Source: Gammaproteobacteria bacterium (GTDB lineage Bacteria > Pseudomonadota > Gammaproteobacteria > JADZEE01). From it: a stretch of DNA of 64,000 nucleotides. The DNA lies in contig CBDDBH010000022.1 of NCBI GenBank assembly GCA_965225625.1, positions 66,103-130,102 of the forward strand, read 5' to 3'. The translations under genes were made by a program, and so were the position numbers. Position 1 is the first letter of the stretch. Every line of letters begins with the position of its first letter. Of the stretch, positions 4,677 to 64,000 are shown piece after piece. A model generated the notes under the pieces. It did not search any database. It saw only the letters and a list, made by a program, of their open reading frames with translations, and had not been told where the DNA came from.

Positions 4677-5372
4677 ATGATCCGACTGCACCTTTTTCCG
4701 CCTTGGAATGGCGTTCAACCGTCGCCGCCGTGTGGCAAAGTCGAGGCTTACTTGACGCTCGCCGGACTGCCGTTCGAGCGCGTCGAGAGCTGGGACATGG
4801 AGTCGGCACCCAAGGGGAAGCTGCCGTATATCGAGGACGGTGAAACCGTGGTGCCGGATAGCTGGTTCATAGTCAACTATCTCAAAGCCACGTACGGTGA
4901 CCCGTTGGACGGGGGTTTGACGCCCGAGCAGCAGATGTTGAGTCACGCTTTGGGTCGGGTGCTCGACGAAAGTCTTTACTTCGCGATTGGATATTGGCGG
5001 TGGCTGGACGATGAGGGTTATGAAATTGCCAAGCAGGCTATGTTTGGCGCACTGCCCAGCGCGGAGCGCGATGCGGCAGCCAACGGCGTGCGCGAAAAAG
5101 CACACAACATGATGCACTACCAGGGGTACGGTCGACATAGCGCAGATGAATTGCTGGAGCTGGTCGAGGCCGACATGCAGGCTCTGGAAACTGCGCTGGG
5201 TGATAAGAAATTCCTGCTCGCCGATACACCCACAAGCGTGGACTGCGGCGGATTCGCGATCATCGAAAATACACTGAATAGCCCCGTATCGCCGCGATTG
5301 GGCCAGGTTACGCGAAAGCACCCGACGCTGCTCGCCTACCTGGAGCGCATGCGGAACCGGCTAACTGGCTAG
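4677..5372 (+). CDS. glutathione S-transferase-like protein (metaxin/GST N+C domains)
   Basis: Thioredoxin-like N-terminus with a C-terminal helical GST domain; 231 aa. Confidence 0.55.
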   Translation: MIRLHLFPPWNGVQPSPPCGKVEAYLTLAGLPFERVESWDMESAPKGKLPYIEDGETVVPDSWFIVNYLKATYGDPLDGGLTPEQQMLSHALGRVLDESLYFAIGYWRWLDDEGYEIAKQAMFGALPSAERDAAANGVREKAHNMMHYQGYGRHSADELLELVEADMQALETALGDKKFLLADTPTSVDCGGFAIIENTLNSPVSPRLGQVTRKHPTLLAYLERMRNRLTG

Positions 5373-5508
5373 CCCGTAACCGGGATTGCGTATTGCCGTT
5401 GCACTACTGGGGTGCGTTGTTAGAATAGGCGCCCAAGAACAGTGCGCCGCCTAGCCCGCTTCTTTTCTTAAATCGTTGTAAAACCAACTCGGTGTCCGTA
5501 TCAGGGCA

Positions 5509-5524
5509 TGGCACGGGTTGTGCA
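5509..5524 (+). promoter_or_regulatory. sigma54 (-24/-12) promoter candidate TGGCACGGGTTGTGCA upstream of glnA, with NtrC-like half-sites TGCAC-N7-GTGCG near 5399-5415
   Basis: GG and GC elements fall at canonical spacing ~120 bp upstream of the glnA start. glnAp2-type promoters are sigma54/NtrC dependent. Confidence 0.4.
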
Positions 5525-5642
5525 ACGGCATTGGGTTCGGCGAAGCTATACATGACATTGGCAACCGCGCAAACCCGACGGTGGGTGCGTGCCGGAGCTT
5601 GGTAATTGAGAGGATGAAACTCTAGTAGAGGAGGTGTGCAGC

Positions 5643-7055
5643 ATGTCGTTAGCCAAACTTAAAGACCTGATAAAGAAAAACAATATAAAAATGGTCGACT
5701 TCCGGTTTGTCGATCTTCCCGGTTTGTGGCAGCACTTTTCGACCACAACGGATGAGATCAATAAAGGGCTGTTTGATGAAGGCATCGGCTTCGATGGTTC
5801 ATCGATACGTGGCTTTAAGGAGATCCAGGAATCCGACATGGTGCTGCTCCCGGATGTCGATACGGCGTTTGTCGATCCGTTCTTCGATCACCCGACGCTG
5901 GTGCTTCAGTGTGATGTTATGGAGCCAGGCTTGAAGCCCTATGCACGCAGCCCTCGTCAGGTCGCGAAAAATGCCGAGAATTATTTGAAGTCCACCGGGA
6001 TTGCGGACACTTGCTACATCGGTCCTGAACCCGAGTTCTTTGTGTTTGATGATGTTCGTTTCGAGCAAAATGCCAGCACGGGTTTTTACGCCATTGACTC
6101 TTACGAGGCGGCGTGGAATTCGGGTCGTGACGAAGAACCGAATCTGGGATATAAGCCGCGACATAAGCAGGGCTACTTCCCGGTTCCACCGCACGACACA
6201 TTGCAGGACCTGCGTACCGAAATGGTACTCAACATGGTGGCCGCGGGGATCCAGACCGAGGTTCATCATCACGAAGTTGCGACTGCCGGCCAGTGCGAGA
6301 TCGACATGCGCTACGACTCGTTGCTTAAGATGGCCGACAAATTGATGATCTTCAAGTACATGGTGAAGAACACCGCGCGCCGTTACGGTCAGGTTGCGAC
6401 GTTCATGCCCAAGCCGATTTTTGGTGATAACGGCAGCGGTATGCACGTTCATCAGTCGCTATTCAAAGGCGGTAAGAACCTGTTTTTCGCGAAGTCAGGT
6501 TATTCCTTGACGTCGAAAGTGTGCCAGTGGTACATCGGCGGGTTGTTAAAGCACGCGGGCGCCCTCATGGCCTTCGCCGCACCGAGTACCAACTCCTATA
6601 AACGACTGGTCCCTGGATTCGAAGCGCCGGTCAATCTTGCGTACTCTGCTCGAAACCGCAGTGCCGCGGTGCGCATTCCGGTCTACAGCGAGGCGCCGAA
6701 TGCCAAGCGCATCGAGTTCCGCCCGCCGGATCCATCTGCCAATCCGTTCTTGTTATTTCCGGCATTACTGATGGCTGGCCTTGATGGTATTGCCAACAAG
6801 ATCGATCCGGGCGATCCCATCGATCAGAACATGTACGATTTACCGGCGAGTATCCGGCGTAAAATCAAGACAGTTCCGGAGTCGCTCGGAGCGTCCTTGG
6901 ATGCGCTGGGAAACGACCATGAGTTTCTGATGTCCGGTGATGTGTTCTCGCAGGATCTGATCGATACGTGGATCAGCTACAAGCGGGACAACGAAGTTCA
7001 GGAAGTGAATCAGCGCCCGCATCCCTGGGAGTTCTATTTGTATTTCGACTGCTGA
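5643..7055 (+). CDS. glnA: glutamine synthetase type I (adenylylatable GSI-beta)
   Basis: MSLAKLKDLIKKNNIKMVDFRFVDLPG N-terminus and GS catalytic motifs; the adenylylation tyrosine context NMYDLP is present. GGAGG RBS lies 9 nt upstream of ATG 5643. Confidence 0.92.
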   Translation: MSLAKLKDLIKKNNIKMVDFRFVDLPGLWQHFSTTTDEINKGLFDEGIGFDGSSIRGFKEIQESDMVLLPDVDTAFVDPFFDHPTLVLQCDVMEPGLKPYARSPRQVAKNAENYLKSTGIADTCYIGPEPEFFVFDDVRFEQNASTGFYAIDSYEAAWNSGRDEEPNLGYKPRHKQGYFPVPPHDTLQDLRTEMVLNMVAAGIQTEVHHHEVATAGQCEIDMRYDSLLKMADKLMIFKYMVKNTARRYGQVATFMPKPIFGDNGSGMHVHQSLFKGGKNLFFAKSGYSLTSKVCQWYIGGLLKHAGALMAFAAPSTNSYKRLVPGFEAPVNLAYSARNRSAAVRIPVYSEAPNAKRIEFRPPDPSANPFLLFPALLMAGLDGIANKIDPGDPIDQNMYDLPASIRRKIKTVPESLGASLDALGNDHEFLMSGDVFSQDLIDTWISYKRDNEVQEVNQRPHPWEFYLYFDC

Positions 7056-7120: not shown

Positions 7121-8440
7121 GTGAAGGTGGTTGACTCTCTGAAACGCTGCATTGCCGGTGCGCCTGATCCGGAAAAGGCGGCCAACGCCGTTGACAGTCT
7201 GAATGCAGATCCAATCGCCCGTCGGCGCCTGCAGAAACTTTCCGCTGAAGCCCGCAAGACACTTGTTCAGGTACTCGGTCTATCCAATTTCCTGTTGAAT
7301 TTTCTGTGCCGACATCCCGAGGCGGTATCGCTGGTGGGAAAACGTCCCAGCAAGAGTTTCCGGGGAAAACCGGGCGCAACCACGCTCGCAGCGCTGTATC
7401 GCTACAAGTATCGTGAACTGTTCAAAATCACCTGTCTGGATTTCGCTGGCGGCGACGACTACGAAAGCGTATTGGCGGCGTTGAGCGACACCGCAATAAG
7501 CGTGATGCAGGCAGCACATACGCTGGTCGGCGGCGAGGACGATCACGCGCTCACTAAACACGTTGTTGCCAATCTTTGTTGCCTGGGCATGGGTAAGCTG
7601 GGTGCGCACGAGCTCAACTACAGCTCGGATGTTGACCTGATGTTCATCTACCCAAACGAAGCGGAGATCCCTTTTGACTTCGAGGATTTTCATGTTGCAA
7701 GCGTACGCCATATTCGAAAGTTCTCGCAGGTGCTCGAACAAACGACCGAGGAAGGGTTTCTTTACCGGGTCGATCTGAAGCTCAGACCGTGGGGCATAGA
7801 CGGACCGCTGGCGATGTCTATCGACGACATGGAGCGCTATTACGAGGAAAGCGCCGATCACTGGGAGCGCATTGCCTGGATCCGCGGCAAACCGGTTGCC
7901 GGTGATCTGGCGTTGGGCGAGCAGTTGGTGCAACGACTGCAGCCATTCATTTACAGGCGCGCGCTGGGATTTGATGACATCGACCGCTTGTTGGATATAA
8001 AGAGTCAAATGGCGCGTATGCGCGAACGCGCGGATCGATGGAACGTCAAACTGGGTCCGGGCGGGATCAGGGACGTGGAGTTCTTTGCGCAGATACTGCA
8101 ACTGCTGCACGGCGGCAGCGAGCCGTCATTGCGAACGCGTAACACGGTAGATACGCTGGCCAATCTGTCGGAACTGGGATTGATCGAAGACGCTGATGCG
8201 CAGCAGTTGCGGGTGACGTACCTGTTTCTTCGTCGGCTTGAACATCGTGTGCAGATCCGCGATGAACGTCAGACCCACGACTTACCTACCAAGCGCCAAG
8301 AACGATTGGTCTTGGCGCGGTCATTAGGTAATCCCGAAGAGTCCGATGACGTCGTGCTTGATAAGTTCGAGGAAGAACTTGCGTTTCATCAAATGGTCGC
8401 TCGCTCGTTTTTCGAGCGTGTACTTCCGGCACAGAGCTGA
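7121..8440 (+). CDS. glnE: glutamine synthetase adenylyltransferase, N-terminal (deadenylylating, AR) nucleotidyltransferase domain; separate ORF
   Basis: GMGKLGAHELNYSSDVDLMFIYP nucleotidyltransferase motif; GTG start after the glnA terminator. The ORF ends in the AR/AT interdomain linker region. Confidence 0.8.
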   Translation: MKVVDSLKRCIAGAPDPEKAANAVDSLNADPIARRRLQKLSAEARKTLVQVLGLSNFLLNFLCRHPEAVSLVGKRPSKSFRGKPGATTLAALYRYKYRELFKITCLDFAGGDDYESVLAALSDTAISVMQAAHTLVGGEDDHALTKHVVANLCCLGMGKLGAHELNYSSDVDLMFIYPNEAEIPFDFEDFHVASVRHIRKFSQVLEQTTEEGFLYRVDLKLRPWGIDGPLAMSIDDMERYYEESADHWERIAWIRGKPVAGDLALGEQLVQRLQPFIYRRALGFDDIDRLLDIKSQMARMRERADRWNVKLGPGGIRDVEFFAQILQLLHGGSEPSLRTRNTVDTLANLSELGLIEDADAQQLRVTYLFLRRLEHRVQIRDERQTHDLPTKRQERLVLARSLGNPEESDDVVLDKFEEELAFHQMVARSFFERVLPAQS

Positions 8441-9782
8441 GCAGGACGCAGGCAGCGTGATCGCAAACAGTTTAGAGGATGCAATTCGCGCGGCCTGGCG
8501 ACCGGATGTTGCACGGGCGAGCATCGAGCGCTGGCAAACCGTGTGTGAGCAGGAAGGTTGGACGAGTTGTCCTCGGAATCTGCCGTTGTTAGCTACTGTG
8601 TTTGGTGCGAGTTGGTATTTCACACGCTACATATTCTTTCGCGGACGCGCCGTGGCACGGCTTTTCGATCGCAAGCGCATGCCCAGTTTTACCGAAGCCG
8701 CCATAGGTCAACGTCTGCGCCGGCTCGCCGGCAAGGGTCGCTACGATGATCCGATGGATCCGCTGCGGGCTGCTAAAAACGAAATCATGCTGGAGATTTT
8801 GATCGCGGATCTTCAAGGTCAGCTCGATCAAGAGAGGATGGAACGCGCGGTGACTAACCTTGCCGAGAGCGCGCTGAGATTGGCGGCAGAGATTGTTGCC
8901 AGCGCTGGCAACAAACGGGCAGCTAGCGATCTGGCGGTGCTGGGCATGGGGCGCCTTGCTGGTTTCGAAATGAATTATGGCTCAGATCTGGATCTCATCT
9001 TCCTGGCACTGAGCGAATCGGACGCGCGCTTTGCCGGCATCTCCCGTAACGGCCGGCAGCTGCTGCACGCGGTGAGCGAAGTTACAGCGCTGGGGCAGCT
9101 TTATCCGATAGATATGCGTCTGCGCCCGCACGGTACGGCGGGTATTCTGGTGACCGAGTTGTCGGCGTTGGTCGCGCATCATTGCGATGAGCGCGATATC
9201 TGGGAGCGACAGATGATGACCCGATGTCGGGTCTTATTGGATCCCGGACAGCGTGTGGGAAAAGGCCTGCAGAAAATTCGTTCGGCGGTATACGGACACT
9301 ATCCACGGGGCGGCCTGGCACTGGCGATTCGGGAGATGCGCGCACGGGTTGAACGCGAATTGGGCAGCCCCACCGGAAAATACGATCTCAAGAAAGGTTA
9401 TGGCGGTATTATGGACATTGATTTCCTCACTCATTATCTACAGCTTGCTAACGGTGAGGAGTTACCCGAACTACAAACCGCCAGTACCCGTCAGGCGCTG
9501 CGTACAGCGAGCGCCTGCGGATTGATCGACGAACTTTTGGCGGTTCGCCTGTTGCAGGCCTACGATTTTTTGAAAACGACTGAAGGGCGTCTGCGTGTAT
9601 TTGATATGAAGCCCGAGCACATGTTTGCCCGCGAGGGAAAAGAACTGGTGCCACTGGCGCGTTCGATGGATTCCTCGCCGGTAGAGGAGGACGACGCAAC
9701 TGCCGCGATAGAGCGCTTTATCGAAAAGTATCGACGCACCACAGGATTTGTCCGCGAGAGCTTTGACGAAGTCGTCCAGTGA
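8346..9782 (+). CDS. glnE: glutamine synthetase adenylyltransferase, C-terminal (adenylylating, AT) domain; ORF in a different frame
   Basis: Second GlnE-type NT motif LGMGRLAGFEMNYGSDLDLIFL. Homologous sequence begins about 8440; a possible GTG restart at 8457 follows AGGA. The overlap 8346-8440 in this frame looks non-coding. Confidence 0.75.
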   Translation: MTSCLISSRKNLRFIKWSLARFSSVYFRHRAEQDAGSVIANSLEDAIRAAWRPDVARASIERWQTVCEQEGWTSCPRNLPLLATVFGASWYFTRYIFFRGRAVARLFDRKRMPSFTEAAIGQRLRRLAGKGRYDDPMDPLRAAKNEIMLEILIADLQGQLDQERMERAVTNLAESALRLAAEIVASAGNKRAASDLAVLGMGRLAGFEMNYGSDLDLIFLALSESDARFAGISRNGRQLLHAVSEVTALGQLYPIDMRLRPHGTAGILVTELSALVAHHCDERDIWERQMMTRCRVLLDPGQRVGKGLQKIRSAVYGHYPRGGLALAIREMRARVERELGSPTGKYDLKKGYGGIMDIDFLTHYLQLANGEELPELQTASTRQALRTASACGLIDELLAVRLLQAYDFLKTTEGRLRVFDMKPEHMFAREGKELVPLARSMDSSPVEEDDATAAIERFIEKYRRTTGFVRESFDEVVQ

Positions 9783-17613: not shown

Positions 17614-18516
17614 TTAACTTCCCGCAAGCTCCCGATACACCATCGCGACAAAATGATCAGGACTGAAAAAGCCGCCGCCCCAGCGGGCGTCAAATTGCGC
17701 CGTGGGTTTCGCGGCAACAACCTGCTCCAAGGTCTTGCCTTGAGAGATCAATGCTTGCACTCGGTTGCGGATAGTTATCAGTAGATCGCGTACGGCGATG
17801 AGTTGGGCTTTGTCGGTGATCTCACCGTGGCCGGGAATGATGCGGGTAGCGGGCCCCGCAATGTCGATCGCCGTTTCAGTGCCTGCAATGATACCGGCGT
17901 AGCGACCGCCGTTGCCGGTATCGACGACGGGATAGCTGGTGGTGCGGAACACATCGCCCAGATGTAACACGTCAGAGCCACGGAAATGGATGAAGGTGTC
18001 GCCGTCAGTGTGTGCGGGGGCGATGCGAAAAGCGTGTACTTCCTCGCCATTGAGATGAAAGGTGATGGTGTCGCTGAAGGTGACGACCGGTAAGGCCGCC
18101 TGTAGTACCGGCGCCATTCGTTCATTGGTGCGCAGGTTCATGATGCCTGCCGCCAGCCGTTCACGTACGGAATCGCGGGCAAAGATCAATGCGCCACGTT
18201 TACCCATGTTCTCGTTGCCGCCGACATGATCGGGATGAATATGGGTGTTGATGAGAAACCGGATCGGCTGCGTCGAGATAGCGCTTACCGCGGCAACGAT
18301 CTTATCGGTCAGCGGCGCGAATTGATCGTCGATAAGGACCACACCGTCATCACCGGCGGAAACGCCGATGTTGCCGCCACGTCCCTCCAGCATATACACG
18401 CTGCCAGCCACATGATGGGTTTTTATGTGTACGCTATCCCAGTCTACTTCCTGAGCACTCACGCCATGCGTGTTGGCAAGCAGAAGTAGTATTGCAATCA
18501 CGGGGGAAATCCGCAT
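17614..18516 (-). CDS. MBL-fold metallo-hydrolase, secreted
   Basis: Signal peptide MRISPVIAILLLLANTHGVSA; HxHxDH motif THIHPDHVGG. Confidence 0.75.
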   Translation of the reverse strand: MRISPVIAILLLLANTHGVSAQEVDWDSVHIKTHHVAGSVYMLEGRGGNIGVSAGDDGVVLIDDQFAPLTDKIVAAVSAISTQPIRFLINTHIHPDHVGGNENMGKRGALIFARDSVRERLAAGIMNLRTNERMAPVLQAALPVVTFSDTITFHLNGEEVHAFRIAPAHTDGDTFIHFRGSDVLHLGDVFRTTSYPVVDTGNGGRYAGIIAGTETAIDIAGPATRIIPGHGEITDKAQLIAVRDLLITIRNRVQALISQGKTLEQVVAAKPTAQFDARWGGGFFSPDHFVAMVYRELAGS

Positions 18517-18552
18517 AGTTGGTCTCCCAGGCTTCGCCGGAGTTTATAAGCT

Positions 18553-19837
18553 GATGTCCAATCATACCGCACCGACCAATGGTGACGAGAGCATGCAGTG
18601 GCCCGCCAGCGATTTTTCGCGCGTGCCCTATTCGGTGTATGTCGATCCCGAGATTTATCAGCGTGAGCAGGCGCGTATTTTCAAGGGTCCGCTGTGGAGT
18701 TATCTGGGGCTGGAAGCGGAACTGCCCGAGGTTGGTTCATTCATCGCTTCCAGCATCGGCGATACCAGTATCATCGTCTCACGCAACAAAGACGGTGAGA
18801 TCCGCGCCTTTGTTAATCGTTGCGCCCATCGAGGCGCTACCGTGTGTAGGGTGCTGCGCGGCAAGACCAAGAATTTTCTCTGCGTGTACCACCAGTGGTC
18901 GTACGACTTAAACGGAGACTTAAAAGGGGTGCCCTATCGAAAGGGGATCCGTGGTGCAGGCGGCATGCCGGCAGACTTCGACATGCAGGAGCACGGACTG
19001 GAGAAAATACGCGTAGCGACCTACAAAGGAGTCATTTTCGGAACGTTCAGCGACGCGGCGGAACCATTAGAGGAATTCCTGGACGCGCCGCTGCGTAAGT
19101 ATCTGGATCGGCTGTTTGATAAAAAAATTACTGTTCTGGGTTATACCCGCCAAGTCGTGTCGGCGAACTGGAAACTGTATGTGGAGAACACCAAAGATCC
19201 GTATCACGCGGCGCTGCTGCATTTGTTTCATGCAACTTTCGGTTTTTACCGCTCGACGCAGCAAGGTGGTGTGACGCTCGACAAAGCAGGCATGCATAGC
19301 GCCATTTACGCGAAGATAGGCACGGACGACAACAGCAGCTTGAGCGAGGCTTTTTCGGAAACCCGATTTACCAAAATCGAGGCCGATGACACCGATTTTA
19401 AACTCAGTGACCCCTCTATTCTGAAAGCGCGCAAAGAGTTTGACGACGGCATCTCTACATTGATCATTCACATATTCCCGAGTGTCGTCATTCAACAGAT
19501 CAGCAACACGCTGGCGACGCGCAAGATCATCACCCATTCCAAGAATAAGTTTGAGTTGTTCTGGACTTATTTTGGCTACGCGGACGATGATGAGGAACTG
19601 CGCAAAATGCGCATCAAGCAGGCAAATCTAATCGGCCCTGCCGGGTTCATCTCCATGGAAGACGGCGAGGCCACGCGCCTGGTTCAGGCCAATGCAGAGC
19701 AGTCGCAACAACATCATTCCGTGATCGAAATGGGCGGGCTGGGCGAGATTGGTTCCGAGGACCATCTCGTTCATGAGACCTCTATCCGTGGCATGTGGCG
19801 ACAGTATTGCAAATTGATGGATATCCACGTTGGATGA
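18553..19837 (+). CDS. Rieske non-haem iron oxygenase alpha subunit (aromatic ring-hydroxylating)
   Basis: Rieske motif CAHRGATVC...CVYHQWSY with a catalytic domain. The start is probably MSNHTAPTNG at 18553, although the ORF opens at 18470. Confidence 0.8.
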
Positions 19838-20300
19838 CGACACGCGAAATCTCATCGAGGATCTAATTTCAGACAGCGCTCGGCTGATCGATGAGGATCG
19901 TCTCGAGGATTGGGTGGGACTGTTCGCCGATGACTGCGTTTATCGGATCACTACGCGTGAGAATTTCGATCATGACCTGCCGATCTCTATCATCGATTGC
20001 GAGGGCATCGGCATGCTGCGCGATCGTATCGTGTCATTGCGTCAGGCCAACATATACAACGTCCATTTTGATCGTCATCTGGTGACGAGTGTGCGCATCC
20101 TCGGGCAAGAAGGGAACCTCTACGAAGTGCATTGTTCCTACAGCGTTTACCAGACGACTCCGGAAGGTGAGTCCAGTCTTTACAGTATCGGTAAATACCT
20201 CGATAAGATCCGTATCGACGAAGGCATCGCGCGGTTCCAACAACGCATCGTCGTCGCCGACACGGCAGCTATACCTAATTTGCTTGCTACTCCCCTGTAG
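19830..20300 (+). CDS. Rieske oxygenase beta subunit (NTF2-like small subunit)
   Basis: Overlaps the alpha-subunit stop, and the ~155 aa size and SnoaL-like sequence fit a beta subunit; TTG start per the ORF track. Confidence 0.65.
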   Translation: MDDDTRNLIEDLISDSARLIDEDRLEDWVGLFADDCVYRITTRENFDHDLPISIIDCEGIGMLRDRIVSLRQANIYNVHFDRHLVTSVRILGQEGNLYEVHCSYSVYQTTPEGESSLYSIGKYLDKIRIDEGIARFQQRIVVADTAAIPNLLATPL

Positions 20301-25408: not shown

Positions 25409-26260
25409 CTAGGACATGAATTTATTCACGTCGACGGGATTGATGAGATCCGGGGTCTTCCAGCCGTCGAGGTCATTTTCGTCCATACACTGCTCGGCAA
25501 ACTTGATCAGCTCTTTGTCCAGCCCGGCGCCTTGAGCAGAAAGCAAATTTTCAAGCCGGATGTTCTCGTAGTTACCCGCATAGTTGCGCTCGTAGAGTTC
25601 ATGGCGTGTGCCGAATTCCGTGCCGATAGCGTCCCACAGCAGGCGCATTATTTTCACTCGCTCCTCGGCGTCCATGCCGAAAGATCCGCACAGATATTTG
25701 TCTAAATATGGTCGGATCTCAGGCGTTTTAAAGTCCACAGCATGCGAGTTCACATAAATCAGACCGCTTGCTACAACGTTCTCAATAATCTCCCGAACCC
25801 GAGGGTAAACCACAGTTGACAGCATGCGGCTTGCATTAGCCCCAATGAGGGCGGGCTGACCATTGCCGTTTGTCGATCGACCGGCGGATTGACGATGGCA
25901 TGATTGAGAAACAACACGCGCTCCTGCGCGCGTCGATACCATGCGCGTGCGTCGTCCTCATAAGGCGCATAAAACTGGGGATTCATTCCCAAGGTCCCAA
26001 TGAAGGAGGCCTTGTAATCAGGGGAACGTCCCATCCAGCCGTAGGTTATTCTTGGCCACTCGACGATAGCGTCACGCCCGCGGGCTAATTCTTCTGCGGA
26101 TTTTGGTACGCGGAAGAACGAATGCGTGAATCCGCCGTTGCCGGTATCGGTAGGGCAGGTGAGAGCGCTTTCTTGTCAGGCGCGTGTAAGGCGTCATAAA
26201 GTCGCGCAACCATGCGCGCCCGATTTCGAGACGCCGGGTGAACCGTAACATCTGCAACGC
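25409..26260 (-). pseudogene. 4-hydroxyphenylacetate 3-monooxygenase oxygenase-component (HpaB family) remnant, frameshifted and N-terminally truncated
   Basis: HpaB C-terminal homology (LYERNYAGNYENIR...; [38 protein letters not shown]) is split over three minus-strand ORFs in different frames. Only ~850 bp of an expected ~1.5 kb gene remains. Confidence 0.6.
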
Positions 26261-53123: not shown

Positions 53124-54395
53124 TCACAACGGTTCAAAATTCTCCCTTGGAACCTCGACCAGACTTTTCTGGTCTGCGATAACCGACGCCGCCCGTACGG
53201 CCTGGGAATGTGCTTGCAGACCTGGCATGTCGCCTCCGGTCTGGTTCGCCTTTGCGGCTCTTAACAGGCGCCGTCGGGTGACAATGATGCCGTCATCACT
53301 GGATACCAGATTCTCAGCACTGCGATCCGCAACTCGCCCCTGACTTTCCTGCACCGCCGTATCCTGCATCGCAAAACTTGGAATGCCGGTGAAGCTCACC
53401 CCGGCGCGCTGTGCTTGCCGATCTTGAAGGTAGTCGTTGTTACGATTTGCGTTGCCCTGGTGAGTCCCGGGGACGAACTCCACATGCAATCCGCCGCCGT
53501 TGCGCATTGCCTCACGCTCCATCGTGCTGAACGGTCTATCAATGTAGTAATTGACCGCCCAACTCCAGCACGAGTAATCATCAACCGGTACCCATGCCTG
53601 AGCGTTGAGACTGAGATCTCCCAGGGGAGCAATGATGTTAAAGCAGGGGAAAATAAACTGGGTGACGCGCCAGTAATATTGACCTTCGCCGGCGTCACGA
53701 CGCGCACCAAGCATCAGGCCACCATCGGTTTCAAGCGTTTCGTAGCGCGGATTGTGATCGCTTGCGAGGATATCGAGGATGCGCGAATCCTTGCCTAATC
53801 CTCCAGTCCCCATCACCGGATCGTCGCTCAATGTACCGCGGTGGAGAAAAGAAAGATGACTGGAGTCGAGCCCACCTTCCATTACCTGCAGATAGTTACA
53901 CTCCTGAAGTCGCTTGGACACGAACAGGTTGTCGACGGGTAAGCCGGCCCATTCCAATGCGGGTGGCGACGGTCGTAACGCTGGCGCACCCATGTATACC
54001 CAGATAACACCGCCGCGTTCGAGCGTCGGATATGCGGTCAGGCGTATCTTGTCTCTAAACTTGTTCTCGGCCGGTTCCGACGGGACATCCAAACAGCGCC
54101 CGTTAACGTCGAAGTGCCAACCGTGGTAGGCGCAACGGATCCCGCAATCTTCGACCCGGCCAAAGTATAGAGACGCTTGCCGGTGCGCACAGGCCTCCGC
54201 GATGATACCGACATTGCCCGCAGAGTCGCGAAAGGCCAGCAGTTGTTCGCCGAGCAAGGGTATGCGTACCGGCGGGCAATCCGGGGTCGGTAGTTCCTCT
54301 ACCGTCAGCGCGGGCAACCAATAACGCCGAAACAGCGCACCCATCGGTGTGCCTGCATTGGTGCGCGTTAAGGTGTCGTTGTTTTCGTGCTTCAT
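53124..54395 (-). CDS. alpha-only Rieske oxygenase (phthalate-dioxygenase/VanA/GbcA-like class)
   Basis: Rieske motif CAHRQASLYFG...CAYHGWHF with the N-terminal GTPMGALFRRYWLPA typical of the PDO-type subfamily. Confidence 0.8.
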   Translation of the reverse strand: MKHENNDTLTRTNAGTPMGALFRRYWLPALTVEELPTPDCPPVRIPLLGEQLLAFRDSAGNVGIIAEACAHRQASLYFGRVEDCGIRCAYHGWHFDVNGRCLDVPSEPAENKFRDKIRLTAYPTLERGGVIWVYMGAPALRPSPPALEWAGLPVDNLFVSKRLQECNYLQVMEGGLDSSHLSFLHRGTLSDDPVMGTGGLGKDSRILDILASDHNPRYETLETDGGLMLGARRDAGEGQYYWRVTQFIFPCFNIIAPLGDLSLNAQAWVPVDDYSCWSWAVNYYIDRPFSTMEREAMRNGGGLHVEFVPGTHQGNANRNNDYLQDRQAQRAGVSFTGIPSFAMQDTAVQESQGRVADRSAENLVSSDDGIIVTRRRLLRAAKANQTGGDMPGLQAHSQAVRAASVIADQKSLVEVPRENFEPL

Positions 54396-54511
54396 TGGCT
54401 TAGGCTGGCGCGCACTGATAAAGGCGAGCGTGTGGAATATGCCAACAGTTGGCGAGCCGCACCCGCGCGCACCGTGCCGATACTAATAAATGTAAACGTA
54501 TCGGCCGTGCT

Positions 54512-55036
54512 TTACCCTGCCTCGACCGATAAACCGATAACAACCGCCGTGGAGCAGTGATACACCGCGCTCTTGGTGCCCAGGCACCAATCGATGTCGT
54601 TGCTCTTCTGGGGACGGTACATCGGCTCTTCACGCTCGTTGCGATTACAGACACAACGGCCACAACTGCTCTTGCCACAACAATCGTTATACGAAATGAC
54701 GTAATCCTTGCCATCCGCGGGGTTGAGGCAGGTCCCTATCCAGGTGATGGGCGAGGGCTCGGTGCCAGGTGGGCATTGCGTTTGTGAACCGCCGCAACAG
54801 GCGCACAGGAAACCATCGATCGCACAATGGCGCCAGTATTCGCAGGTCCCCGGATCACCCGGATCTTCGGCGGGCCCGGGCGCGCGTGACGGCGACTCTG
54901 CGCGTGCGATCGGTAATACAGGAATGGTCGCAGCGCCGACCATGGCGGTGCCGAACTTGGATAGAAAACTGCGTCGGGAAGTCTGCCGTGCAAGGTTGCG
55001 TGAGAAACGTTCGGACCAACGGTCTAACCAGTTCAT
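54512..55036 (-). CDS. mauA: methylamine/aromatic-amine dehydrogenase light (TTQ-bearing) subunit
   Basis: Tat leader TSRRSFLSKFGTAMVGAATIPVLPIAR, near-identical in pattern to known MauA leaders. Mature domain CEYWRHCAIDG...CPPGT...YNDCCG...PMYRP...NDIDWCLG...YHC carries both TTQ tryptophans and a Cys-rich disulfide core. Confidence 0.88.
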   Translation of the reverse strand: MNWLDRWSERFSRNLARQTSRRSFLSKFGTAMVGAATIPVLPIARAESPSRAPGPAEDPGDPGTCEYWRHCAIDGFLCACCGGSQTQCPPGTEPSPITWIGTCLNPADGKDYVISYNDCCGKSSCGRCVCNRNEREEPMYRPQKSNDIDWCLGTKSAVYHCSTAVVIGLSVEAG

Positions 55037-55071
55037 AGTGTGAAGCCTCGTTGCGGTAACAGATTGCAGTC

Positions 55072-56214
55072 TTAGGGAGTTTGGATCACGGTCAGCGTAC
55101 TGGTCGCGCTCAGTTCAACACCGCGCAGACGTTTACCGGTTTTTGCGTCTAACACCTGTAGTTCCGGGCTTTCCAAATTGACGGTATACAGTAGTGGTTT
55201 GTCGTCGCTGCTCACGTTGACCGAGGTCGCATGATGTTCTAGTTCGATACGCTGCACACGCTTCTTTGAGACAAGGTCGTATACCCAGATCTGCTCGGCC
55301 GGTGCTTTGTGTGAGCCGGGCCCGCCCTGATGCATAAGCACGTACATCCTTTTGCTCGCGCTGTGGATGGCGAAGAGCTGATAGCCACCAGGCAGCCAGT
55401 TGTCGGTGCGATCAGCGTCTGTTTGCAGTGACCATGGTTTGGCCAATTTCGGGGTTGCGCCGGCGCCGTCGAATGCGTAGACATCGCCCTGGAAGGATAG
55501 GAAATACCACGTCGAACCGTCTCTTACCGCATCCTCATTGACCAGATCCTTGGACGGGTCGAAAAGCTGTTTGCTCCGCGACTTCTTCGCCGCCTTGCCT
55601 GTATCGTCCAGCGTAATGGTCAGCAGGCTGCCGTCGGCACAAAGCATATGTACGTTGCGCGCATCGCCCGGGTATACGAAAGCGCAGCCGGCCGTGTCGA
55701 TCTCGCCAATGAATTTGCGCGCTTTGGTATCGACTACGGTCACAGTTTGCGCCGGCGTGAAGTTGTAGCTGAGCAGAAAACGGTCGTCGTCGGTTAAACC
55801 CATGTGCACGAGCGTGGGGATACTCAACAGTTGTTTCGGCGGCAAGATTACCTCGCCAACGGCGTCCAGAGTCGTTGGATCGAAGATGCTGAGTACGTCC
55901 GTGCGTACCCCGCGGGTGCCGCGCGAATAAAATGTATCGGTCGAATAGATGACGCTGTAGTCCGAAGGCATCAGCAGCGCATCGTGGAAGCCGCCGGTGG
56001 ACAACATGCCCAGGACGGAGCCATCGTCTGCGTTCACCAGGTAGGCGCGACCGTCGATCATGTTGAAAAAGGCGATGTCGTTAACCCAGACCCAGTGCGG
56101 GTCGAGTTTCGCCGGTAGTTTGGCAACGCTGATCTGTTCAGGTTTCAGTTCCGCCTGTGACACCGATGACCAGAAGATCAAACTTAGCGCGAGGACTGAG
56201 AATAGTCGTGCCAT
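55072..56214 (-). CDS. mauB: amine dehydrogenase heavy subunit (7-bladed beta-propeller)
   Basis: Sec signal MARLFSVLALSLIFWSSVSQA. A 380 aa propeller-sized protein 36 bp upstream of mauA in the same orientation. Confidence 0.7.
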   Translation of the reverse strand: MARLFSVLALSLIFWSSVSQAELKPEQISVAKLPAKLDPHWVWVNDIAFFNMIDGRAYLVNADDGSVLGMLSTGGFHDALLMPSDYSVIYSTDTFYSRGTRGVRTDVLSIFDPTTLDAVGEVILPPKQLLSIPTLVHMGLTDDDRFLLSYNFTPAQTVTVVDTKARKFIGEIDTAGCAFVYPGDARNVHMLCADGSLLTITLDDTGKAAKKSRSKQLFDPSKDLVNEDAVRDGSTWYFLSFQGDVYAFDGAGATPKLAKPWSLQTDADRTDNWLPGGYQLFAIHSASKRMYVLMHQGGPGSHKAPAEQIWVYDLVSKKRVQRIELEHHATSVNVSSDDKPLLYTVNLESPELQVLDAKTGKRLRGVELSATSTLTVIQTP

Positions 56215-56320
56215 AGTGCTATCCGCCTAGTGTGGTGAAGCTGAGAACATGAATTGTCGTGGGTTCACTCGTGCGTATCAAGTGGTTGCCGTACCAGCAG
56301 GCCGGCGGGCCAGATAATCA

Positions 56321-57127
56321 TCAAGCTTGCTCCCACCAACTGATGACCTGCCAGGTATTGCCGTCCACTGCCGGCAACGCCCGTTCGCCGGTTTTGTAGT
56401 CCGCCAGCCAACTCAGGGCAAGCGTTTCACCTTCGCGCCACGGCAACGTTGACAGTCGAATTATGTAGTCGTCGTCTGCAGAATCGCGCTGCGTGTAAGA
56501 GAATTCGCAATCGACCAACGCCCTCACTACATCGAGATCCTCTTTTGCCAGCTCTGCCAATATCGGCAGGGCAACTTCGGCATCGATGGGTTGCACACGA
56601 TCGCGCGCGAACACTGCGTGCGTGTCGGTTACCAACAGGCAGGTCTTCGACGCAGCGTTTTCCAGTACGAGGTGTGCGGCGAATGATTGCGATGCAGATT
56701 CCACTCGCCAGTCTTCTTCGTAGGCACCACTTGGCGCCCACTCGATCATGCAAGCGTTGTTCTCGCACCATTGGAACCAACCCGGCTCTGGAAAATTGAC
56801 GACGGGTTGCAGCGTAAAACCATGCCCACCGGGCGCCCAGTTCGCGGTCGGATACGGCTTCGCGTCCACGTCGCAGGTTGTTATCACACAGGAGCAATCT
56901 TGCGCCGCCAGTGCCAATAATTCGTCATAGTTGCACGCGGCGAGCGCATCACGGTCGGACAAATCTGGACGGTCCGCGGGGATCCGCATGTCGGCGGCTG
57001 CGGACGAGGTTTGCAACCACAGCACGCGCGTGGAGGTGTCTTCGTCACCGTTTTTGTAACGAATGTATCGCCGTCGCCAGCAACCGATCATCTCGGCGGG
57101 GACGGTGGGGGCGGCCTTATTCTGCAT
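56321..57127 (-). CDS. Cys-rich cytoplasmic hypothetical protein at the head of the mauBA transcription unit
   Basis: 268 aa, no signal peptide, Cys clusters (DCSCVITTCD, WCENNACMIEW), no CxxCH; no family recognised. Confidence 0.45.
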   Translation of the reverse strand: MQNKAAPTVPAEMIGCWRRRYIRYKNGDEDTSTRVLWLQTSSAAADMRIPADRPDLSDRDALAACNYDELLALAAQDCSCVITTCDVDAKPYPTANWAPGGHGFTLQPVVNFPEPGWFQWCENNACMIEWAPSGAYEEDWRVESASQSFAAHLVLENAASKTCLLVTDTHAVFARDRVQPIDAEVALPILAELAKEDLDVVRALVDCEFSYTQRDSADDDYIIRLSTLPWREGETLALSWLADYKTGERALPAVDGNTWQVISWWEQA

Positions 57128-59714: not shown

Positions 59715-60062
59715 ATGACCAACCTTTTGCCCTCCGAATTCGCTGATCTGGAGCCCTACCTGGTTTGGGCCCAGTCAACGGAACTGGCTCGCCACCAGGT
59801 TCGCGTTTCCCGATCCATTGAGGAGATCCGCGCATTTTACGACGCCGTGCTCCCCCGCATCGAGGCGATCCTCGAGTATTTGAACGCATTCCCCTTAGAC
59901 GACATGCCAGAGCAGGAGCATCGATTGCTGGAGTTGTCACTGGGTCTGGTCGAGGCCGCGAATGCGGTCGAGATGTTCGAAGAGCCGGGCATGCGTTACG
60001 GCTTCCCTATTGAGCGATTTACACCAAAGCACCACAAGACCGTGCAGGCACGGGGAGATTGA
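59715..60062 (+). CDS. hypothetical protein (115 aa) translationally coupled to the downstream Rieske oxygenase
   Basis: Its stop TGA overlaps or abuts the Rieske gene start; no family recognised. Confidence 0.4.
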   Translation: MTNLLPSEFADLEPYLVWAQSTELARHQVRVSRSIEEIRAFYDAVLPRIEAILEYLNAFPLDDMPEQEHRLLELSLGLVEAANAVEMFEEPGMRYGFPIERFTPKHHKTVQARGD

Positions 60063-61261: not shown

Positions 61262-61279
61262 CGAACAAGAGAGGGTGTT

Positions 61280-62026
61280 ATGGACAAAGAACTACAAGAA
61301 CTGAAAACGCTGTTGCTGGACGTCAAGCAAGGTCTCGATCAGCTGCAGGATGTCGACGCTTTGCAGCGATTGATTGTCAACTACGCGCGCGGCTGTGATC
61401 GCGGCAATGATCCAAGCCTGATCGGTCCGCTGTTTTCGCAAGATGGCACCTGGGAGTGTAAAGGCTTCGGCAAATACATCGGTCGCGACAAAGTCGCAAA
61501 GGGTCTGCACGGCATCGCCGGTGAAAAAATATGGTGGTCGTTGCACTACATGATCTCGCCGCTGATTGACATCGCGCCTTCGGGTGATAGCGCCACGGGG
61601 TTCTGGTATCTGTGGGAGGCCGCCACCATACCGAACGAGGAAACCAACGACGCAGAAGCACACTGGATCGGCGGCACCTATGACACGGAGATGGTAAAGC
61701 GTGACGGCGAATGGTTCTTCAAGAGTATGGAACTGAAGTTGCACATGGCGAGCGGCTACGACCATGGCTGGGTAAAAAAGCGCTTCCCAAATGGGACCCG
61801 CAAACAACCGTATTTCGAAAACCTGGATGCCGGCAGCTACCATTGGTGTGCCTGTGGCCGCTCCAACAACCAACCGTTTTGCGACGGCTCGCACAAAGAG
61901 ACCAAGCGCACGCCGCTGGAATTCAAAGTGGAGGTCCAGGAAAACGTTGTGCTGTGCGGTTGTAAATACTCCAAGACCAAACCGTATTGCGATGGCTCGC
62001 ACTTGAATCTGAACCTAGATGGGTGA
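61280..62026 (+). CDS. NTF2/SnoaL-like domain fused to two CDGSH-type [2Fe-2S] domains
   Basis: N-terminal ~165 aa SnoaL-like region, then CACGRSNNQPFCDGSH and CGCKYSKTKPYCDGSH (two complete CDGSH signatures). Confidence 0.7.
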   Translation: MDKELQELKTLLLDVKQGLDQLQDVDALQRLIVNYARGCDRGNDPSLIGPLFSQDGTWECKGFGKYIGRDKVAKGLHGIAGEKIWWSLHYMISPLIDIAPSGDSATGFWYLWEAATIPNEETNDAEAHWIGGTYDTEMVKRDGEWFFKSMELKLHMASGYDHGWVKKRFPNGTRKQPYFENLDAGSYHWCACGRSNNQPFCDGSHKETKRTPLEFKVEVQENVVLCGCKYSKTKPYCDGSHLNLNLDG

Positions 62027-62035
62027 TCTGCAGCA

Positions 62036-63613
62036 ATGAGAAAAATACTGCCCCCCGGCATTGACCAGACAACCCTGACTAAAGCACTGGACGCCTTCGC
62101 GGACGTGGTTGGCGAACAGTGGGTGTTCGCCGACGAAGCCTCCGGATTAGAGAGTTATCTCGACTCCTACGCCATTGTTGAGCCGGATTACTACGCGCCG
62201 TCCGCGGCCGTTGCGCCAGATAGCGTTGAGCAGGTGCAGGCGATCCTGAAGATCGCAAACGAATACAAAATTCCGATCTGGACGATCTCTACCGGCAAGA
62301 ATCTCACCTACGGCGGGCCGGCGCCGCGTCTGCCCGGCAGTGTCGTTCTGGATCTGAAACGCATGAACCGCATTCTCGAGGTCAATGAGGAATTCGGTTA
62401 CTGCCTGGTCGAACCGGGGGTCAGCTATTTCGACCTGTACGAATACCTGCAAGAGAACAACATCAAACTATGGCTCAGCGTACCCAGCCCGGGTTGGGGC
62501 AGCGTGCTGGCAAACGCGCTCGAGCGTGGCGGCGGTCACACGCCCTATGGCGATCACTTCGGTATGCAATGCGGTATGGAAGTGGTTCTCGCCGACGGTG
62601 AGATCGTGCGTACCGGCATGGGCGCGCTGCCTAACAACAACACCTGGCAGTTATTCAAATATGGCTACGGGCCGTATCTGGACGGCATCTTCACGCAGTC
62701 CAACTACGGCGTGGTAACCAAGATGGGAATGTGGTTGATGCCTGAGCCGCCAGGATACCGCCCGTTTATGCTGACGTTTCCGCGCGAAGACGATATCGAA
62801 CCGCTGGTCGACATCATGCGACCGCTTAAGATTGCCGGTGTCATACCCAATGCGGCAGTGATCGTGAATGTGCTGTTTCAGGCAGCAGTGGACGTTAGCA
62901 AGTCAGAATACTACGACGGTACTGATCCCATTCCCGAGAGCGCCATTAAGAAGATCATGGCGGACAGGGACATCGGCATGTGGAACTTCTTCGGTGCGCT
63001 GTATGGCGATGAACGGATCATGGACGCGCAGTGGCAAACTATTAAAGACGCCTTCTCGGCGATACCTGGTACCAAGTTCTATCTGCGGGAAGACCGCCCG
63101 GACGATCCTGTGATGAAGTATCGCGCCAAAGGTATGTCCGGTGTGCCCAATCTTTCCGAATTCGGTTTCATCAACTGGCGTGGCAACGGCGGTCATATTG
63201 ATTTCTCACCGGTGTCGCCTTCCACCGGCGCCGACGCGCTAAAGCAATACCGAATGATCCGCGATCGCTGTCATGAATATGGTTTCGATTATCTCGGGGT
63301 ATTCGTGCTCGGGTGGCGAGAGATGCACCATATCTCCACGTTGGTATTCGACAAAACCGACGCGGCTGATAAGAAACGCGCGCACGATATGTTTGCAATT
63401 CTTATCGAAGAGGCCGCTGAGCTGGGATACGGCAGTTATCGAACGCACTTGGAGTATATGAATCAGGTTGCGGAAATGTTCAGCTTCAATGATCACTCTC
63501 TAATGCGCTTGAACGAACGACTCAAAGACGCGTTGGATCCGAATGGCATTCTCGCTGCGGGTAAGTCCGGGATCTGGCCTAAATCCTTGCGCGAAAACAG
63601 GGGTCCGCTATGA
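62036..63613 (+). CDS. VAO/PCMH-family FAD-linked oxidase (vanillyl-alcohol oxidase / 4-cresol dehydrogenase flavoprotein-like)
   Basis: PCMH-type FAD-binding domain (PIWTISTGKNLTYGG ... VVLDLKRMNRILEVNEEFGYCLVEPGV) with a VAO-like cap domain; 525 aa. Confidence 0.8.
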   Translation: MRKILPPGIDQTTLTKALDAFADVVGEQWVFADEASGLESYLDSYAIVEPDYYAPSAAVAPDSVEQVQAILKIANEYKIPIWTISTGKNLTYGGPAPRLPGSVVLDLKRMNRILEVNEEFGYCLVEPGVSYFDLYEYLQENNIKLWLSVPSPGWGSVLANALERGGGHTPYGDHFGMQCGMEVVLADGEIVRTGMGALPNNNTWQLFKYGYGPYLDGIFTQSNYGVVTKMGMWLMPEPPGYRPFMLTFPREDDIEPLVDIMRPLKIAGVIPNAAVIVNVLFQAAVDVSKSEYYDGTDPIPESAIKKIMADRDIGMWNFFGALYGDERIMDAQWQTIKDAFSAIPGTKFYLREDRPDDPVMKYRAKGMSGVPNLSEFGFINWRGNGGHIDFSPVSPSTGADALKQYRMIRDRCHEYGFDYLGVFVLGWREMHHISTLVFDKTDAADKKRAHDMFAILIEEAAELGYGSYRTHLEYMNQVAEMFSFNDHSLMRLNERLKDALDPNGILAAGKSGIWPKSLRENRGPL

Positions 63614-64000
63614 CTCAACAAGCACACGTCAGTAACGGCCAATGCCCCATCGCCTTGGAGGAACTCGAACAATCGGCGCAGGATTTCACCACTGCGGTGG
63701 TGCTGCCGTCCGAATGCTATTCGGATCCGGCTTTTTTCGATTTCGAAATGGAGGCGATATACACGCACGAATGGATCTGTGTCGGCCGCGTTGACCAGAT
63801 CCCGGAGCCAGGGGATTTCTACACCATCACGGTAACGGGTGAACCCCTCATCGTCGTGCGCAATCCCGATCGCGAGGTGCGCGTCATGTCAGGTGTGTGC
63901 CGTCACCGCGGTATGGTGATCACGGCGTCGGCGCAGACGACTCCGGAGCATTGGACCGATCCGCCCGCGGAGACCAAGGGCAACTGCCGCAGCTTCCGTT
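63610..64000 (+). CDS. second Rieske oxygenase alpha subunit, 5' part (runs off window end)
   Basis: ATGA overlap with the VAO gene; Rieske CxH motif GVCRHRGMVI; translation continues to the window edge. Confidence 0.7.
   Translation, partial: MTQQAHVSNGQCPIALEELEQSAQDFTTAVVLPSECYSDPAFFDFEMEAIYTHEWICVGRVDQIPEPGDFYTITVTGEPLIVVRNPDREVRVMSGVCRHRGMVITASAQTTPEHWTDPPAETKGNCRSFR

Follow-up and report, generated by a model that had tools for sequence, protein, structure and literature searches.

We analyzed a 64-kb window (the whole stretch of 64,000 nucleotides, from contig CBDDBH010000022.1 of a Gammaproteobacteria bacterium) and found at positions 61,280 to 62,026 a gene whose product joins an NTF2-like barrel of the SnoaL_4 family to two CDGSH iron-sulfur sites, within an operon encoding Rieske non-heme-iron oxygenases. 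This fusion is tied near-obligately, in both directions, to one clade of oxygenase alpha subunits, and to alphas of the type that lies directly upstream of it in the window (alpha1). The reading that we favor, to which we give roughly even chances, is that the fusion is an accessory redox subunit of these particular Rieske oxygenases, whose CDGSH clusters would act as a built-in ferredoxin.

Both parts of the protein were recovered by Pfam in a single chain of 248 amino acids (aa), far above the curated cut-offs, as the preliminary description of this DNA had anticipated. SnoaL_4 matched residues 21-150 (E 1.6e-19, 70.6-72.1 bits; cut-off 24) and zf-CDGSH (PF09360) matched two stretches (E 6.2e-20, 71.6 bits; cut-off 29.5), and by these matches the protein is a true member of both families. 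Site 1 (C190-A-C192-GRSNNQPF-C201-DGS-H205) and site 2 (C226-G-C228-KYSKTKPY-C237-DGS-H241), each of 16 residues, follow the CDGSH/NEET signature C-X-C-X2-(S/T)-X3-P-X-C-D-G-(S/A/T)-H with three Cys and one His. The preliminary description was thus right in calling both signatures complete, and its expectation of two [2Fe-2S] clusters is supported by the two intact sites, each of which would be predicted to hold one; its notation of the spacing was wrong, the pattern being C-x-C-x2-S-x3-P-x-C-D-G-S-H with the Pro inside the eight residues between Cys2 and Cys3. The ligands survived realignment, being kept in 108-114 of 114 full-length family members, on which all conservation counts of the family are based. 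Those of site 2 (C226, C228, C237, and H241) were present in 114, 113, 114, and 114 members, and those of site 1 (C190, C192, C201, and H205) in 111, 112, 108, and 112, respectively. An AlphaFold2 model of the fusion, built from 114 sequences, reached a predicted local distance difference test score (pLDDT) of 95.5 and a predicted template modeling score (pTM) of 0.89, the latter predicting that the CDGSH module is fixed in position on the NTF2 barrel. The NTF2 fold extends to approximately residue 169, taking in a conserved GW164V motif.

Over their whole length, residues 173-242 of the fusion aligned with 3TBN (E 5e-24) and CISD3 (E 5e-18), and the model superimposed on CISD3/MiNT (6AVJ) with 1.4 Å over 70 residues at 44% identity; this half is predicted to adopt the two-motif, pseudo-dimeric, MiNT-like NEET fold. 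CISD3/MiNT and 3TBN share with it two NEET-type sites in a single chain with both signatures complete, but they are free-standing (~90 aa) or targeted to membranes or mitochondria, whereas the module of the fusion sits on an NTF2 barrel within oxygenase operons. Little is known as yet of what CDGSH proteins do in bacteria, and the fusion partners recorded in a survey of the family are Fer4_19, Glu_synthase, Ferritin-like, and Rieske_2, with neither SnoaL nor NTF2 among them (PMC5859297). A search of the openly searchable literature, with subscription-only literature lying outside it, gave no description of CDGSH together with SnoaL or NTF2, and CDGSH was absent from the 25 top-ranked literature matches for Rieske-oxygenase terms. 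The arrangement, which the preliminary description had not recognized as described, accordingly has no previous account in the literature that could be searched.

Other CDGSH fusions were also seen. Three proteins (P0127, P0132, and P0137; loci L146 and L147) combine three to five CDGSH motifs with an FNR-type FAD/NAD reductase module in one chain, and one (P0130) carries four CDGSH motifs with Fer2, nucleotide cyclase, and Rieske domains. The CDGSH-FNR fusions were considered as a Rosetta stone for an electron carrier and set aside as giving weak support only; the two inspected contigs (those of P0127 and P0137) look eukaryotic, with sparse genes and an EnY2 gene, and contain no oxygenase genes.

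The NTF2 half had been labeled Rieske-beta-like in the preliminary description, a label that we do not retain. Its sole Pfam match was SnoaL_4, with no match of the fusion to Ring_hydroxyl_B (PF00866) even at E<=10. As a control within the window, the genuine beta subunit at 19830-20300 matched Ring_hydroxyl_B at E 3.8e-11 and SnoaL_4 weakly. When this beta was aligned with the fusion family using hhalign, the probability was 2%, and the hidden Markov models (HMMs) of the fusion family scored it at 1-8 bits versus 204-287 bits for the fusion. There was no Rieske beta subunit among the top 50 Foldseek matches of the fusion model. Recognizing the NTF2 half as a Rieske beta is therefore not supported, either by its sequence or by the ranking of predicted folds. 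What the fusion does share with the beta subunits of alpha3beta3 oxygenases is the NTF2-like alpha+beta cone (AlphaFold2 model and Foldseek) and the placement of its gene immediately 3' of an alpha gene (50 of 52 informative genome loci); Ring_hydroxyl_B and SnoaL_4 are also close Pfam families, as the weak SnoaL_4 match of the true beta illustrates. It differs in family and in carrying Fe-S sites, which to our knowledge are found in no canonical Rieske beta subunit.

The nearest solved relatives of residues 1-169 were instead the trimeric SnoaL_4/NTF2-like enzymes LdpA (also LsdE, a diarylpropane lyase; 8ABT/8ABV), LinA (3A76/3S5C), and BaiE (4L8P), with profile E values of ~1e-9, a Foldseek E of 2e-10, and, for LinA, a root-mean-square deviation of 1.8 Å over 142 residues. 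We know of no account that places LdpA, LinA, or BaiE beside a Rieske alpha gene. The trimeric LdpA has been shown by mutagenesis to need Tyr35, Asp40, His97, Glu143, and Tyr147 (PMC9942872). Y35, D40, H89, and Y134 of the fusion align with Tyr35, Asp40, His97, and Tyr147, so that the His-Asp dyad (H89/D40) and the Tyr oxyanion-hole residues (Y35/Y134) of LdpA-type enzymes are present; they were conserved in 114, 114, 112, and 114 of the family members, respectively, and the same four residues are conserved in stand-alone NTF2 relatives. The position of Glu143 is taken by I130 (Ile in 104 and Val in 10 of the 114), and the fusion is therefore not an LdpA orthologue. A further difference is that LdpA has a C-terminal arm without a metal site, with the start of which the GW motif of the fusion aligns, where the fusion has two CDGSH sites. 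The true beta of the window seems to keep an Asp aligned with D40 and possibly a His aligned with H89 (a low-confidence hhalign alignment), and the dyad thus suggests a working pocket and is no proof of catalysis. Judged from these residues, the NTF2 pocket may bind or convert a phenolic intermediate.

Among the relatives of this half were chains of 650-1019 aa with three tandem SnoaL_4 domains close to the NTF2 domain of the fusion, one of them fused to an esterase (P0157, P0163, P0172, P0182, and P0211); these are apparent covalent pseudo-trimers.

To define the family, 5.8 billion proteins were searched for homologues of the fusion, giving 495 matches. At least 113 clusters at 90% identity carry both SnoaL_4 and zf-CDGSH, with identities to the fusion of up to 86%. 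At the 50%-identity level, an exhaustive HMMER scan of 1.84 billion representatives found a single full-length representative, and the other strong matches were stand-alone NTF2 proteins (~155-195 aa), CDGSH-only proteins, and unrelated multidomain proteins. Since the 90% clusters reduce to one representative at 50% identity, the fusion is, on this clustering, one compact family. Its members are named in their sources only as "nuclear transport factor 2 family protein" or "CDGSH-type Zn-finger protein". The hosts are Gammaproteobacteria (metagenome-assembled genomes, MAGs), Binatia, sphingomonads and other Alphaproteobacteria, and one actinobacterial and one planctomycete MAG; cultured carriers include Novosphingobium sp. 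Rr 2-17, AP12, Leaf2, and BL-52-GroH, and N. profundi. No full-length member was present in the plasmid database. Apparent split forms, NTF2-only or CDGSH-only, from the first search (P0115-P0120) were rejected as fragments or frameshifted copies. Two extra cysteines of the NTF2 domain, C39 (61394-61396) and C60 (61457-61459), were kept in 110 and 106 of the 114 members, whereas among stand-alone NTF2 relatives Cys60 was rare (5/103) and Cys39 less frequent (42/103); they could form a disulfide, have a redox function, or contact the CDGSH module.

The linkage to Rieske oxygenase genes was examined from both sides. On the fusion side, a Rieske alpha gene lay directly upstream on the same strand in 50 of the 53 genome loci, 52 of them informative, which span several phyla; of the other three, one ends at a contig edge and two are orphan copies from a single MAG (L001 and L037). 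The gap between the alpha and fusion genes had a median of 27 nucleotides (nt), and several of the gene pairs overlap. The usual partner belongs to one coherent clade of alphas (type B). On the alpha side, 80 metagenomic loci encoding type-B relatives were used, with the cognate clade taken to comprise alphas that reach ~680 bits or more with the clade profile and one alpha, truncated by a contig end, that scores 621 bits. Of 12 informative alphas in the cognate clade, 11 had the fusion gene behind them; the more distant ones never did (0/4 at 620-650 bits and 0/~60 at <=530 bits). No canonical beta-subunit gene was found in any annotated fusion locus. The architecture is thus not a common one unrelated to Rieske systems, the outcome that the preliminary description had named as speaking against its idea. 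ORFs (open reading frames) of ~330 aa following sister-clade alphas were considered as reductases and rejected, as they are VanA-like Rieske oxygenases. In another locus (L086), an NTF2-only (SnoaL_4) gene at 4960-5904 lies between the second and third of three tandem Rieske alphas, a more distant pairing without CDGSH.

In six other contexts, no ferredoxin or oxygenase reductase gene was found within +/-10 kb of the fusion, and none was detected by Pfam throughout the 64-kb window. The exception was an alphaproteobacterial/actinobacterial subclade of 13 loci, in which a Rieske ferredoxin gene lies divergently beside the alpha gene. CDGSH site 1 was off-signature, being degenerate or shortened, only in six sphingomonad loci (L045, L047, L048, L049, L050, and L053), which comprise five of the 13 ferredoxin-bearing loci and one locus whose ferredoxin position is hidden by the contig end. 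Site 1 was lost in none of the ~38 loci without a ferredoxin gene. The loci with departures are related and may reflect few evolutionary events.

Unfused counterparts of the module were found in cultured strains. Plasmid pABRDHK22 of Novosphingobium sp. EMRT-2 carries genes for an alpha1-type alpha, a homologue of the small 115-aa protein encoded first in the window operon (small115), an NTF2-only protein, and a Rieske ferredoxin, the last of which lies where the fusion carries its CDGSH module, in a 4-nt overlap with the NTF2 stop codon. A plasmid of Acinetobacter sp. YH12138 carries the same trio of alpha, small115, and NTF2, with a Rieske ferredoxin and a [2Fe-2S] reductase encoded four genes downstream, past genes for a styrene/indole monooxygenase, a flavin reductase, and an SDR (short-chain dehydrogenase/reductase). 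Compared with the window genes, these modules scored 276-294 bits for alpha1, 68-69 bits for small115, and 76-113 bits for NTF2. Both modules, which are uncharacterized, thus resemble the window operon in having homologous alpha, small115, and NTF2 genes in one cluster, and differ from it in an NTF2 protein without CDGSH, a separate Rieske ferredoxin (in Acinetobacter also a reductase), and another gene order. By analogy, the position of the ferredoxin gene in the EMRT-2 operon lends indirect support to the preliminary description's idea that the fusion could be an electron shuttle. The indole iif cluster beside the Acinetobacter module was considered as an explanation for its NTF2 gene and rejected, as IifA is a dienelactone hydrolase. 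Another metagenomic contig encodes an NTF2-only protein that stops where CDGSH would begin, convergent to a pair of small115 and alpha1 genes. The more distant NTF2-only relatives in Rhodococcus, Burkholderia, Paracoccus, Aminobacter, and Microbacterium had no linked Rieske gene.

In the window itself, the genes for small115, alpha1, the fusion, a VAO flavoprotein, and a second alpha (alpha2) follow one another in this order with gaps of 2, 18, 9, and -4 nt (Table 1), which bears out the earlier placement of the fusion gene within a Rieske oxygenase operon. The alpha1 and fusion genes share the same reading frame, and consensus scanning of the operon for internal promoters and terminators gave nothing above chance. 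On a longer contig with identical genes (L056), alpha2 is 406 aa long, and a TonB-dependent receptor gene comes next. The window is atypical in that its upstream alpha belongs to a different family and its type-B-like alpha is placed after the flavoprotein: alpha1 scored ~80-100 bits against the profile of the usual partners, and alpha2, which is related to the usual partner clade, ~300-360 bits. The nearest solved relatives of alpha1 (phthalate 3,4-dioxygenase alpha, CntA, and others) aligned with its N-terminal half only. In 25 genome loci, the gene right after the fusion is a VAO orthologue, and a cytochrome c gene comes behind it in every one of them; in the window lineage, the cytochrome c gene is absent after VAO.

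The alpha1 family is always accompanied by the small 115-aa ORF. Small115 had no Pfam or NCBIfam match, and its 29 homologues are all hypothetical; its AlphaFold2 model (pLDDT 85) consists of four helices and matched no PDB fold at E<3. Homologues adjoin alpha1-type alphas in loci L007, L014, L036, L148, L149, L151, and L152, and the two genes lie side by side, in either order, in most contexts (gammaproteobacterial MAGs, Novosphingobium, Acinetobacter, and Nocardia). On a short contig (L145) with no alpha visible, a small115 homologue lies directly 5' of a stand-alone NTF2 gene. Small115 looks like an unrecognized small subunit or assembly factor. In a Nocardia sp. locus (L149), the alpha1-type alpha and small115 genes lie beside genes for an RPE65-family (lignostilbene/carotenoid-type) dioxygenase and a Fer2-domain protein, neighbors that hint at stilbene- or lignin-type substrates for the alpha1 family.

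Table 1. Features of the fusion gene and its operon (positions in the window)
Feature	Position	Strand	Basis or remark
small115, 115-aa ORF, first gene of operon	59715..60062	+	no family match
Rieske alpha subunit alpha1, 398 aa	60065..61261	+	Pfam Rieske + Ring_hydroxyl_A
Shine-Dalgarno-like AGAGGG	61270..61275	+	4 nt ahead of fusion ATG, read from sequence
NTF2(SnoaL_4)-2xCDGSH fusion protein, 248 aa	61280..62026	+	ORF from ATG, Pfam
SnoaL_4 NTF2 domain, residues 21-150	61340..61729	+	Pfam
NTF2 pocket codon Y35	61382-61384	+	
NTF2 pocket codon D40	61397-61399	+	
NTF2 pocket codon H89	61544-61546	+	
NTF2 pocket codon Y134	61679-61681	+	
CDGSH signature 1 (C190, C192, C201, H205)	61847..61894	+	
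CDGSH signature 2 (C226, C228, C237, H241)	61955..62002	+	
VAO / p-cresol-methylhydroxylase-type flavoprotein, 525 aa	62036..63613	+	Pfam FAD_binding_4 + FAD-oxidase_C
Rieske alpha subunit alpha2, runs off window end	63610..64000	+	sequence; Rieske + Ring_hydroxyl_A in full gene

From the architecture, the intact ligands, the predicted fold of high confidence, the conservation, and the gene linkage, we infer that the fusion binds clusters, that it associates physically with alpha, and which way and for what purpose electrons flow. In the mechanism that we propose, the SnoaL_4/NTF2 barrel would trimerize like LdpA, LinA, and BaiE and would be the part of the fusion that associates with the oxygenase alpha, serving as a trimeric docking body. 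Rieske oxygenases have threefold symmetry, and the LdpA trimer and the single-chain triple SnoaL_4 relatives would fit a threefold assembly compatible with alpha3. The MiNT-like module would hold two 3Cys-1His [2Fe-2S] clusters as a covalently attached, ferredoxin-like relay, supplied with electrons by a reductase or a separate ferredoxin whose gene lies elsewhere. The invariant site 2, presumed to be functionally nearest to the Rieske center, would pass electrons to the Rieske cluster of alpha, and site 1 would be a plausible entry point for electrons, dispensable where a dedicated ferredoxin exists. The proposed role, that of a small [2Fe-2S] carrier feeding the Rieske center of alpha, is the one played by the ferredoxins of three-component oxygenases and by the Fer2 domain of the phthalate-dioxygenase-reductase type. 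Those carriers have 2Cys-2His Rieske or 4Cys plant-type ligands and a different fold, in contrast to the 3Cys-1His CDGSH sites of the fusion, and the fused Fer2 sits on the reductase, whereas the CDGSH module sits on what would be an oxygenase-side subunit.

Several observations weigh against the accessory redox subunit. The correlation between the alpha and fusion distance matrices (r 0.93) is no better than that with the neighboring VAO gene (all pairs of alpha, fusion, and VAO 0.90-0.96), and the mirror-tree comparison therefore shows co-inheritance only and is uninformative on contact. Close relatives of the alphas (~50% identity) occur without the fusion (L070, L073, L074, L079, and L080), so the subunit would be an add-on with no structural necessity. 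Among known oxygenases, the partner alphas come nearest to those of the GbcA/CntA/Stc2-like group, which work as alpha3 and are not known to need a beta. Seven of the 13 ferredoxin-bearing loci keep both CDGSH sites, and the CDGSH module is thus no simple replacement of a ferredoxin. The NEET clusters that have been studied have midpoint potentials of ~0 mV, compared with roughly -100 to -150 mV for oxygenase Rieske clusters, and would therefore be poor donors unless those of the fusion family are tuned lower. Finally, an intact LdpA-type pocket is hard to explain in a purely structural and redox subunit.

One alternative, compatible with the accessory redox subunit and in our view rather unlikely, is a bifunctional pathway enzyme: the NTF2 half would be an LdpA-like lyase or dehydratase acting on a phenolic substrate or product of the oxygenase by quinone-methide-type chemistry, and CDGSH would have a secondary redox or regulatory part. 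In sequence and fold, the solved proteins nearest to this half are enzymes (LdpA, LinA, and BaiE), and the equivalents of LdpA Tyr35/Asp40/His97/Tyr147 are near-invariant (112-114/114) and also present in stand-alone relatives. The gene neighborhoods are of phenolic or lignin type, with a PCMH-type (p-cresol-methylhydroxylase-type) flavocytochrome, UbiD/EcdD decarboxylases, HpaB, and ring-cleavage dioxygenases; a parallel is offered by NTF2 deformylases and cresol-dehydrogenase-type enzymes, which make the same quinone methide intermediates (PMC12997858). Against catalysis stand the replacement of the essential acid Glu143 of LdpA by Ile or Val and the apparent presence of the D40-equivalent Asp, and possibly the H89-equivalent His, in the true beta of the window; such an enzyme also leaves the two fused, conserved Fe-S sites and the near-obligate pairing with the alpha clade unexplained. 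In another alternative, which we consider improbable, the fusion would be co-located with the oxygenase without being physically coupled to it: a redox protein or enzyme acting on its own in the same catabolic pathway and inherited in a cassette with alpha. The equal correlation of the alpha, fusion, and VAO matrices (r 0.90-0.96), the two orphan copies without an adjacent alpha (L001 and L037), and the distant NTF2-only relatives away from Rieske genes are all consistent with co-location. Yet the alpha-fusion pairing persists across phyla while every other neighbor changes, the start and stop codons of the two genes overlap or lie within ~30 nt, the fusion occurs with two different alpha families, and the same NTF2 family recurs in modules of alpha, small115, NTF2, and ferredoxin.

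Two further explanations concern the clusters themselves. In line with proposals for eukaryotic NEET proteins, the fusion might be a cluster donor or repair factor, offering labile CDGSH clusters to the Rieske center of alpha, or a sensor of O2 or redox state. Lability and transfer of the clusters are known traits of NEET proteins (e.g., PMC6006223, PMC8463382), and the CDGSH module shares 44% identity with CISD3/MiNT over the aligned core. We nevertheless hold this to be very unlikely, as no precedent is known within bacterial oxygenase operons, a stoichiometric donor would need no rigidly attached and strongly conserved NTF2 barrel, and the ferredoxin gene at the equivalent place in the unfused operon points to electron transfer. 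Least probable of those weighed, in our view, is that the fusion accepts electrons from the VAO/PCMH-type flavoprotein encoded next to it, replacing cytochrome c and perhaps relaying electrons to the oxygenases. In the window, as in 25 genome loci, the VAO gene comes right after the fusion, and the window alone lacks a cytochrome c gene after VAO, the alpha2 start overlapping the VAO stop by 4 nt; approximately half of the loci, however, hold the alpha-fusion pair without VAO, and every other VAO locus has its own cytochrome c. The expected potentials from a PCMH-type flavin to an oxygenase Rieske center are also uphill. In the window lineage, where VAO without cytochrome c is wedged between the fusion and alpha2, there is a slight chance of a self-financing oxygenase, in which the CDGSH clusters would collect the electrons that the flavoprotein takes from a phenolic substrate and pass them to the Rieske oxygenases, with no NAD(P)H reductase needed.

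Elsewhere in the window, the control beta gene (+ strand; 156 aa, Ring_hydroxyl_B) overlaps the gene of a canonical Rieske alpha of 455 aa at 18470-19837 (+), with the beta at 19830-20300. A LigXa-like Rieske oxygenase is encoded at 53124-54395 (-), divergent from the operon, next to light and heavy chains resembling those of methylamine dehydrogenase (54512-55036 and 55072-56214, both -) and a 268-aa protein without family (56321-57127, -); this block at 53124-57127 (-) adjoins arginase-family and CN-hydrolase genes and combines, unusually, genes of the quinoprotein amine dehydrogenase and Rieske types. The adenylyltransferase GlnE appears split in two overlapping ORFs (7121-8440 and 8346-9782), each with GlnE and GlnD_UR_UTase domains, possibly through a frameshift or an assembly error. 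The C-terminal domain alone of an HpaB-type hydroxylase is encoded at 25409-25942 and may be a gene remnant.

In the aerobic breakdown of aromatic compounds, lignin, and pollutants, the main enzymes are Rieske oxygenases, which are classed by the components that supply their electrons. What is new here is a Rieske oxygenase system with a proposed Fe-S-bearing accessory subunit, apparently without precedent, whose family is already in the databases, unnamed. The anatomy of the fusion and its genetic linkage are solid and would come as a surprise to those who work on Rieske oxygenases and to those who work on NEET proteins; the mechanism is inferential. If the accessory redox subunit holds true, a subunit with NEET-type clusters would be a kind of component outside the electron-transport classification of Rieske oxygenases and would make a new class, and it could explain operons without a ferredoxin or reductase. 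The LdpA-like pocket raises the possibility that one subunit both feeds electrons and handles a phenolic intermediate. The cultured strains that carry the unfused module or the fusion make experiments feasible, and the field of bacterial CDGSH proteins would gain a defined partner enzyme and a redox role that can be tested.

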